The notes beneath the pieces were generated by a model. The model saw only the letters and a list, made by a program, of their open reading frames with translations. It did no database searches and was not told the origin of the DNA. The translations under genes were made by a program, and so were the position numbers. A stretch of DNA of 64,000 bases from Candidatus Gastranaerophilaceae bacterium. Lineage in GTDB: Bacteria; Cyanobacteriota; Vampirovibrionia; Gastranaerophilales; Gastranaerophilaceae. The stretch spans positions 36,204 to 100,203 of the forward strand of contig JAZTWQ010000004.1 in the NCBI GenBank assembly GCA_045635965.1. Direction: 5' to 3'. The stretch's first letter is position 1. Every line of letters starts with the position of its first letter. Shown one piece after another: positions 34,021-34,791 of the stretch.

Positions 34021-34791
34021 TTACCACGGATAATCATCTGGAATACGCCAGCTATTAAGCTCTAATAATTTTGTACAATACAACGGATTCTCATGTCCGT
34101 CCCAAACACCAGTTCCGCAACCCCAAGTACCATGCGTAAATAAATTCTCACGAGTTTTTCCATCCCAACCTAAGTCAAACGGTTTGAATGGACGTTCTGG
34201 GGACATTGAAAAAACAAATAAATTTCTAGTTGAACGATTTTCTCTATTACCATCTATAAAATAGGCAACAAGAACCAAATCTGCATCTAACACATCATGT
34301 TGAAAATTAAACCAAAAAGAAGAGCCATTCCTCAATTTAACCATAGCTTTACCTGAATAACCAGAATCAGTTATTTCATCAATTTTTATATATGGTGCTA
34401 GATATTTTTCGATATAAGCTTTGTTTTGTTTAAAAGTTGCTAAACCACTTGAAAAAGTAAAAATATTATCATCATAAGCCCAATCTTCAATAGGTCCATT
34501 TTCTATAGTGGAAAGTTTTATTGCGTTTTGCATAGAAGAATAAAAATTTAAAACCCTAGATTCGACAACTCTTTTTTGATGATTTCTCATAAGAGTAGGA
34601 ATTGTCATTGCAGAAACAACACCTATAATAGTCAAAGTTATCAAAACTTCAGAAAGCGTAAACGCCTTTTTTCGCTTAACTTTTTTTAAACAGCTATCAG
34701 CGGGAGAACTCTCTCTCTCTCTCTCTCTCTCTCTCTCTCTCTCTCTCTCTCTCTCTCTCTCTCTCTCTAGAAAAATAAGGGTTTTGGGCAT
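34021..34791 (-). CDS. pilin-like protein, subfamily B, with an (AG)30-encoded Glu-Arg repeat in the leader
   Basis: GGAG-N8-ATG. MPKTLIFL-(ER)n-SSPADSCLKKVKRKKA|FTLSEVLITLTIIGVVSAMTIPTL. Start chosen by homology to the other leaders. Confidence 0.7.
   Translation of the reverse strand: MPKTLIFLERERERERERERERERERESSPADSCLKKVKRKKAFTLSEVLITLTIIGVVSAMTIPTLMRNHQKRVVESRVLNFYSSMQNAIKLSTIENGPIEDWAYDDNIFTFSSGLATFKQNKAYIEKYLAPYIKIDEITDSGYSGKAMVKLRNGSSFWFNFQHDVLDADLVLVAYFIDGNRENRSTRNLFVFSMSPERPFKPFDLGWDGKTRENLFTHGTWGCGTGVWDGHENPLYCTKLLELNSWRIPDDYPW
34709..34768 (-). repeat. perfect dinucleotide repeat (CT)30 on plus = (AG)30 on the coding strand
   Basis: Counted from the sequence as 60 nt. Translated in frame as 19 alternating E/R residues. 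Confidence 0.95.

Follow-up and report, generated by a model that had tools for sequence, protein, structure and literature searches.

The stretch analysed here, 64,000 nt of contig JAZTWQ010000004.1 from a Candidatus Gastranaerophilaceae bacterium (hereafter the window), encodes on its minus strand a pilin-like protein, the product of gene E, whose leader-coding region contains a perfect run of 30 AG dinucleotides. This (AG)30 tract is probably a hypermutable simple-sequence repeat (SSR) that serves as a translational ON/OFF switch, by slipped-strand phase variation at a contingency locus. The number of AG units is polymorphic among related strains and yields both ON (in-frame) and OFF (out-of-frame) alleles.

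On the plus strand the tract is a perfect (CT)30 at 34709-34768, corresponding to (AG)30 on the coding strand, and Tandem Repeats Finder (TRF) recovered it with a period of 2, 30.0 copies and 100% matches, in agreement with the first-pass annotation of this DNA. TRF found no other period-2 array in the window, and a regular-expression scan for dinucleotide runs of at least five units returned only a (TA)5 besides it in the 64 kb. A chance origin of a perfect 60-nt dinucleotide run would be effectively impossible in 64 kb of DNA with 34% guanine plus cytosine (GC). The features of the locus are:

34709..34768, minus strand: (AG)30 simple-sequence repeat in the leader-coding region, ON (TRF, regular-expression scan and frame analysis)
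34021..34791, minus strand: gene E, pilin-like protein of 256 amino acids (aa) with N_methyl and DUF6613; the end coordinate includes the stop codon, 34021-34023
34663..34791, minus strand: class III signal peptide leader, residues 1-43, MPKTLIFL-(ER)n-SSPADSCLKKVKRKKA, with the predicted prepilin-peptidase cut at A43/F44
34024..34662, minus strand: mature pilin-like part, with FTLSE, predicted alpha-1 helix 46-98, beta-sheet head DUF6613, Cys225/Cys239 and C-terminal IPDDYPW
34800..34803, minus strand: ribosome-binding site (RBS) GGAG, 8 nt 5' of the ATG, kept in all orthologous contigs
34822..34850, minus strand: promoter-like TTTACA-17-TATTAT with a TG before the -10 hexamer (TGnTATTAT), 30 nt 5' of the ATG, kept in orthologous contigs
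33978..34004, minus strand: terminator-like hairpin and T-run, directly past the gene E stop codon

Read on the minus strand, the locus is GGAG-ttttaaaa-ATG CCC AAA ACC CTT ATT TTT CT(AG)30 TTC TCC CGC TGA TAG C..., with the start codon 23 nt 5' of the tract. The first-pass annotation had given this leader as ending in a complete CTA codon followed by (AG)30; the sequence was correct, but the repeat already begins with the A of that codon. One nucleotide of Leu8 (its third base), 19 whole codons and two nucleotides of Ser28 thus come from the tract; the 19 codons alternate between Glu and Arg (10 Glu and 9 Arg) and lead into SSPADSCLKKVKRKKA|FTLSEVLITLTIIG, both as originally described. The tract is currently in frame (ON), and with the flank present in the window the ON state requires n = 0 mod 3. 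The predicted arithmetic of unit gain and loss was sound: changes of one or two AG units shift the frame and changes of three keep it. Both other frames terminate, 4 and 8 codons past the repeat. No in-frame ATG, GTG or TTG was found between the repeat and F44, and expression of the pilin domain thus depends on the frame of the repeat, which lies between the sole usable start codon and the pilin domain, so that a change in unit number alters the frame. The tract lengths found here, (AG)30 in gene E and G10-G11 in its paralogues, exceed the thresholds used in a survey of phase-variable SSRs, which were poly-G of at least 9 and dinucleotide repeats of at least 8 units (PMC5953494).

Other placements of the start codon and of the repeat were considered and rejected. 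An open reading frame (ORF) listing offered a TTG start at 34842, giving a protein of 273 aa, but the conserved promoter-like -10 hexamer lies downstream of this TTG. An SSR acting in the promoter or the 5' untranslated region was set aside because the conserved RBS and ATG are upstream of the repeat and no start codon is downstream of it. Promoter-like sites were not more numerous than in shuffled sequences, so the site at gene E is no more than consistent with a promoter. With this site upstream and the terminator-like hairpin downstream, gene E looks monocistronic.

The polymorphism of the repeat was established from ten orthologous metagenome contigs (L085-L094), from at least six samples, that were compared with the window at the tract site. 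These contigs are syntenic with the window, with genes for a 103-aa and a 671-aa protein upstream of gene E and those for an M29 peptidase, lpxA and fabZ downstream. Over the mature region their identity is 97-100% among themselves and about 92% with the window; over the whole locus it is 90-94% with the window. The alleles, with the length of the flank between the tract and GCGTTTACG, are:

Window: CT(AG)30TTCTCCCGC..., 43 nt to GCGTTTACG, ON
L085, L086 and L087 (three samples): GT(AG)5TTCTTCACT..., 42 nt to GCGTTTACG, ON, 239 aa, MPKILNFVEREFFTDSCLKKVKRKKAFTL
L088, L089 and L090 (three Joint Genome Institute (JGI) samples): GT(AG)10TTCTTCCGC..., 43 nt to GCGTTTACG, OFF, product MLKILNFVERERERVLPLIAV followed by a stop, mature ORF intact
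L091 and L092, and L093 and L094: GTAGAGAGAAAG... (interrupted), 44 or 43 nt to GCGTTTACG, OFF

In the last four contigs the interrupted allele at the tract site is AGAGAGAAAG, which is out of frame. The sister alleles come from samples ERZ27318263, ERZ28594196, SRR14556670, JGI 3300032167/3300024270/3300024268, ERZ27317338, SRR14556509, ERZ28593718 and ERZ27316771. The first-pass annotation had recommended looking for variation in unit number among strains, and the (AG)5, (AG)10 and interrupted alleles of these ten syntenic contigs show that the number is not invariant. Single-base insertions and deletions (indels) were also observed in the run of A that separates the repeat from the cleavage site (TTTAAAAAAAGTT, window 34663-34708), where the alleles read A7, A6G, A7G or T-rich; these give flanks of 42, 43 or 44 nt and change the AG numbers that are in frame. 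The 90%-identity protein cluster of the best match to gene E contained members of 195 aa, which correspond exactly to E from Met62, and one of 239 aa. Exact-sequence look-ups of the gene E protein, its M29-peptidase neighbour and the protein P0134 returned no record. Scans of JGI metagenomes with two patterns, the upstream flank plus (AG)3 and the conserved downstream flank, gave 0 matches and were uninformative, as L088-L090 carry the second pattern and were nevertheless missed.

More distant orthologues (75-92% protein identity, one of them, L003, syntenic) have no repeat at the tract site, and their leaders read MKK|AFTL, MKNKMAEKRNILKKS|AFTL, MSKIINILRSTLNN... and MKNKMSKSLNILKEGS.... Across the family, leaders range from 3 to more than 70 residues. 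The Glu-Arg residues are thus dispensable, and a functional (Glu-Arg)n peptide was rejected as an explanation, since the number of residues varies, out-of-frame alleles exist and there are orthologues without the repeat. The original proposal that selection acts on the repeat itself, as a slippage-prone frame switch, and not on the encoded residues is supported by the same comparison, in which unit number varies, the frame toggles and the residues are not conserved.

The mature domain of gene E is under long-term purifying selection. The ratio of nonsynonymous to synonymous substitution rates (dN/dS) between the window and the sister lineage was 0.09-0.15 for all alleles, and the (AG)10 OFF allele, as well as L091, retained the full mature ORF of 214 codons. 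Two of the contigs with an interrupted repeat, L093 and L094, have a premature stop and have lost the conserved WRIPDDYPW end. The combination of intact pure-repeat alleles and decayed locked alleles matches, in this small sample, the pattern that a reversible gate would predict.

Several features of the gene E protein (MPKTLIFL(ER)nSSPADSCLKKVKRKKAFTLSEVLITLTIIG...) place it among pilin-like proteins, and it would be a surface or pilus subunit. It scored above the curated cut-offs of PF07963 (N_methyl; 27.8 bits, cut-off 21.2), TIGR02532 (24.1 bits, cut-off 16.3) and PF20318 (DUF6613). The N-terminal motif KKA|FTLSEVLITLTIIG places a Glu at position +5 of the mature part (F44-T-L-S-E48), and E48 was invariant in 56 homologues. 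The leader is unusually long. The residue at -1 is Ala, not Gly, as in the family consensus KKAFTLAEVL; Ala at this position is the one substitution reported as tolerated by PilD. An alignment-based AlphaFold2 model of gene E (predicted local distance difference test (pLDDT) score of 91) has a 53-residue helix, residues 46-98, at a pLDDT of about 90 or more, packed on a five-strand sheet. The family profile matched Geopilin, PilA, GspG and PpdD (E values of 3e-8 to 7e-3), over the N-terminal helix only, and the predicted cleavage at A43/F44 follows from the start of the matched stretch at residue 1 of most of the solved pilins (PilA, GspG, PpdD). A C-terminal cysteine pair, Cys225/Cys239, is conserved; an example of a peptide from the mature domain is NAIKLSTIENGPIEDWAYDDNIFTFSSGLATFK. 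Published Gastranaerophilus genomes encode pilA, pilB, pilC, pilT and pilD (PMC5877343); the window contains none of these genes.

The leader of gene E is not alone in the window. Five paralogous leaders, all on the minus strand, carry poly-G tracts (G11, G11, G11, G10 and G6) at the site of the AG repeat, two of them in frame (C and D) and three out of frame (A, B and F):

48398..48408, minus strand: paralogue B, G11 after GTA, out of frame; gene 47700-48444, ATG 48444
52668..52678, minus strand: paralogue C, G11 after CTA, in frame; gene 52118-52714, ATG 52714
57680..57689, minus strand: paralogue D, G10 after CTA, in frame; gene 56904-57725, ATG 57725
19063..19073, minus strand: leader copy A, G11 after CTA, out of frame, ATG 19109, no fused pilin domain
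25041..25046, minus strand: leader copy F, G6 after GTA, ATG 25082, no fused pilin domain

In a DNA alignment the leader of gene E proved homologous to those with poly-G, and its SSR fell at exactly the same position as theirs, bearing out the earlier observation that the paralogues have poly-G after CTA or GTA at an equivalent site; the G6 copy at 25041-25046, also after GTA, was absent from that annotation. The six leaders share the core AAAA[C/T]G....AAACC, followed by 9-10 nt ending in CTA or GTA and then the tract. In the frames running from the ATG to the pilin domain, the peptides flanking the tract are conserved, with M-x-N-K-T/M-x-E-T-R... before it and A-I-G-S-x-L-N...G-Q-K-I... after it. 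An RNA element as the reason for the conserved leaders was dropped on account of this conservation in coding frames on both sides of the tract and of the lack of an Rfam match; searches of the window with Rfam gathering thresholds and for tRNAs found nothing. Paralogue B would return to frame with a tract of G10 or G13 and has no start codon after the tract and before the mature N-terminus; the NCBI annotation of the same genome calls this gene from an internal Met (P0134, 100% identity).

For paralogues B, C and D there are hints at the protein level, where clusters of at least 90% identity hold both full-length calls and calls truncated to a Met. Within single clusters, relatives of paralogue B differ at the tract site (AEGGA, AVEGA and AVGGGA; VVVGGGA and VVVGRGA), and some clusters hold different leader types (IVVRGGAF and ILKQETIAHH) along with truncated calls. 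The variants in these clusters (P0056/P0174/P0176, P0141/P0163/P0165 and P0142/P0180/P0182) hint at gain, loss and interruption of tracts and at mosaicism of leaders.

Leader copies A (18524-19109, minus strand) and F (24727-25082, minus strand) can be aligned over 169 nt at 79% identity and have a hairpin in common, ATGCCGAA-n4-TTCGGCAT. Each is followed, 350-590 nt downstream, by a pilin-like gene that belongs to a second subfamily and is equipped with its own RBS and ATG. Read in frame, A and F would yield peptides of about 110-170 aa that lack a pilin motif; the pre-tract frame of F stops after 19 codons. These copies may be remnants or separate regulatory ORFs. The second subfamily, AFS[VL][AV]E[AT]M..LLIG..SAPMI, is found at 17822-18523, 23941-24726 and 47074-47565, all on the minus strand, and the PF07963 cut-off is reached by the gene at 23941-24726 alone. 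The long leaders of two genes of this subfamily and the post-tract frames of A and F have a motif in common, R-(R/L)-(F/Y/S)-(D/Y)-A-P-(Q/E)-(G/S)-L, which is repeated within 17822-18523 (APQSLMLQNSAPQSL). Within the post-tract frame of leader A, about 200 nt at 18600-18800 have a GC content of 50%, compared with 34% for the genome, and a permissive search of this stretch gave no Rfam match above chance (best E = 0.27).

Homologues of gene E were found almost exclusively in gut metagenome-assembled genomes (MAGs) labelled Candidatus Gastranaerophilales or Melainabacteria; some bin names were evidently mislabelled. The pilin-like family is massively expanded in Gastranaerophilales, where more than 590 matches were obtained in GTDB representatives, several of them to a MAG; among the matches listed in the scan of GTDB-representative contigs, the closest was 39% identical. 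Leaders were surveyed in 96 pilin-like genes from 84 fetched loci, including 80 MAG loci (L005-L084; 453 kb, 35% GC). A coding-strand run of G8-G13 was present no more than 260 nt upstream of the mature N-terminus in 23 of the 96 genes, most often as G10 (n = 10) or G11 (n = 9), and no dinucleotide run of more than 5 units was found in any of the 96. The 80 MAG loci contained 38 runs of G or C of at least 8 nt where 0.7 were expected, an excess of about 50-fold, and 25 of these 38 were coding-strand poly-G within 260 nt upstream of a pilin N-terminus.

Among poly-G leaders with RBS-supported starts, 2 were in frame and 16 out of frame in the MAG consensus, 10 of the latter needing -1/+2 and 6 needing +1/-2 to restore the frame. 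With one-third expected to be in frame, 12 of these 18 should be OFF (binomial P = 0.033), and this excess may be due to homopolymer errors in short reads, to slippage at the RNA level or to selection that favours OFF majorities. OFF tracts were usually one nucleotide away from an in-frame length (G11 where G10 would be ON, G10 where G11 would be ON). The frame following the tract was open, usually with no internal Met. Gene callers begin these genes at an internal Met or Val (P0121, P0123, P0134, P0165, P0182). In 21 of the 80 loci the contig ended less than 500 nt upstream of a pilin-like N-terminus (L009, L013-L015, L022, L025, L032, L035, L037, L039, L040, L043, L046, L057, L059-L061, L071, L072, L074 and L083), and L061 begins with G13; these breaks fit assemblies that split at heterogeneous or repeated leaders.

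In the mechanism that we propose for gene E, translation would begin at the ATG preceding the tract and would have to read through the tract to reach the pilin domain. Slippage by one or two units in either direction at replication would end translation 4-8 codons past the repeat, and a further slip would restore the frame. Being the leader of a class III (prepilin) signal peptide, this N-terminal segment would stay in the cytoplasm and be removed by prepilin peptidase, leaving its length and composition almost unconstrained. Insertions of Gly runs or of (Glu-Arg)n should be harmless because the leader is cytoplasmic and cleaved off, which fits the wide range of leader lengths in the family, and such freedom would let poly-G in the paralogues, or AG in gene E, expand at the same spot. 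Switching would be frequent and reversible within a population, and the resulting variation may be selected, for example by host immunity or phage.

Several observations weigh against a phase-variable pilin switch. The polymorphism was seen between lineages, in assembly consensus sequences, and not within one population. For the (AG)5 strain and for the (AG)10 strain alike, the three contigs, which come from different samples, agree in their consensus number; the instability of these shorter tracts is therefore not great enough to move the mode from one sample to the next. The 30-unit allele was seen in this window only, a single assembly. Within the sister lineage dN/dS was about 0.3-1.6, on few substitutions, which fits relaxed constraint too. 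The interrupted OFF allele, probably non-switching, is carried by 4 of the 10 sister-lineage contigs, indicating that gene E is dispensable and can simply decay. Turning to the product, no pilus machinery (prepilin peptidase, assembly ATPase or platform) was found within the 64-kb window, and the whole gene E model had no significant PDB match (Foldseek, no match with E<0.35); the head domain is therefore not demonstrably like a solved pilin head.

Some of these points would be expected if AG had expanded as a neutral microsatellite in an unconstrained leader, with frame changes amounting to loss of function in a redundant paralogue and no selected switch. The four interrupted OFF alleles (in two of which a premature stop cuts the mature domain short), the dN/dS near 1 within the sister lineage (small counts), the existence of orthologues that lack any SSR and the many paralogues per genome would all suit this explanation. 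We nevertheless consider it unlikely, as SSRs of different types, poly-G or AG, occupy one and the same leader site in six window paralogues, the enrichment of poly-G across the order is hard to explain unless mutability is selected, and the gene E repeat is perfect over 30 units; moreover, the low long-term dN/dS covers the OFF (AG)10 allele, whose ORF is intact, and the only decayed alleles are those with an interrupted repeat. The out-of-frame excess among poly-G leaders, mostly with no alternative start and usually one step from an in-frame length, also raises the question of recoding, by which RNA polymerase slippage or ribosomal frameshifting on the tract would give a mixture of frames and low constitutive expression, with no heritable ON/OFF state. 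The offsets go in both directions, so no single programmed shift would suffice. In bacteria, most documented cases of productive transcriptional slippage involve A/T runs, and it is not known for AG dinucleotides. As the AG tract varies in DNA between strains, which is sufficient for the states seen, and the consensus poly-G lengths of short-read assemblies are error-prone, recoding seems very unlikely. Least probable of all is that the repeat, or its 30-unit length, was made by the assembler or by polishing. The 30 units do come from one assembly, and assemblies often break at such leaders, but the microsatellite locus is shown to be real by the AG runs that independent assemblies of at least six samples have at precisely this site, with homologous sequence on either side. 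In the window, both flanks run without a break into the conserved promoter, RBS, ATG and pilin domain, and the reading frame is kept through the tract.

The proposed switch has counterparts in pathogens. In Neisseria the tracts of pilC and opa are located in the region coding for the signal peptide, and the poly-G of pilC has its parallel in the leaders of paralogues B, C and D, with their G10-G11 tracts. These neisserial tracts, a poly-G of 9-20 nt within the reading frame of pilC and the pentamer repeat CTCTT in opa, control translation by slipped-strand mispairing, and there was no evidence of variation for Neisseria dinucleotide repeats (PMC5953494). PilC is a tip adhesin or retraction antagonist and not a pilin, and the neisserial pilin gene pilE varies by gene conversion from pilS and not by a leader SSR. 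With type IV pilins and type II pseudopilins (PF07963/TIGR02532) gene E shares the N-terminal motif with Glu at +5, a predicted alpha-1 helix of some 50 residues that leads into a beta-sheet, and a conserved C-terminal Cys pair, but it has Ala where type IV pilins canonically have Gly at -1, and its head, DUF6613, has no significant match to solved pilin heads. Typical type IV pilin leaders are about 6-25 aa, whereas the leader here is long and conserved, at 26-43 aa or more.

In Helicobacter pylori, oipA/hopH (as well as sabA, sabB, babB and hopZ) resembles gene E in having a CT/AG repeat inside the cleaved N-terminal targeting peptide of a surface-protein gene, and in these outer-membrane protein genes, as at gene E, unit number differs among strains and determines ON or OFF by frameshift. 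The CT repeats of oipA lie in the signal-peptide region, in patterns named for 5-11 units, and identical CT numbers occur in both ON and OFF genes (PMC10564699). At both loci indels in the flank alter which numbers are ON. The proteins are unrelated, those of H. pylori being beta-barrel outer-membrane proteins with Sec signal peptides and that of gene E having a class III prepilin leader; the phyla also differ, as do the 5-11 CT units of oipA and the 30 units at gene E. Switching has been experimentally shown in H. pylori, whereas gene E is known from sequence comparison.

Among the other features of the window, a G8 on the plus strand at 10363-10370 (C8 on the minus strand, which is the coding strand of a ribosomal protein operon) lies in the rplB-rpsS spacer and is unrelated to the pilin leaders. 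Near gene E are large proteins of unassigned function, encoded at 37372-41073 and 34913-36928 on the minus strand and at 58661-64000 on the plus strand. One of them, of 1233 aa, has two FHA domains, RamC_N and an EDR1/CTR1/ARMC3 peptidase-like domain, and no Pfam match was found for the 671-aa protein or for another of more than 1779 aa. The genes for the 671-aa and 103-aa proteins are syntenic with gene E in all orthologous contigs.

SSR contingency loci are textbook knowledge for Neisseria, Haemophilus, Helicobacter, Campylobacter and the mycoplasmas. The mechanism proposed here is thus already known in kind, and what is new is the host lineage, the uncultured commensal Gastranaerophilales/Melainabacteria; full-text literature searches returned no publication that deals with SSR phase variation in Melainabacteria/Gastranaerophilales or with DUF6613. 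Also new are the location of the repeats in the cytoplasmic, cleaved prepilin leaders of a large expanded family and the convergence of poly-G and AG on one nucleotide position, with an AG allele that is unusually long at 30 units. Since gene callers truncate these genes to an internal Met and assemblies break at the leaders, the pilin-like repertoire of these MAGs is systematically mis-annotated.

A broader proposal, which we offer tentatively and with a slight lean towards doubt, is that gut Gastranaerophilales, which are non-photosynthetic relatives of Cyanobacteria, carry a large, mostly-OFF combinatorial repertoire of pilin-like surface proteins, each gene gated by a hypermutable tract, in most cases G10-11 and in gene E the 30-unit AG repeat, at a fixed site in a conserved and extended prepilin leader; in a more radical version, the excess of tracts one step from ON may reflect programmed slippage at the RNA level. 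If true, this repertoire would be the first "phasome" in the phylum, with type IV filament subunits diversified in a distinct way, by a leader-SSR gate and not by pilS-type conversion or shufflons. The 5/10/30-unit allelic series would serve as a strain and population marker, and if heterogeneity is confirmed at the level of reads, these tracts would offer a culture-free handle on surface variation, and on the pressure exerted by host and phage, in a poorly understood gut clade.

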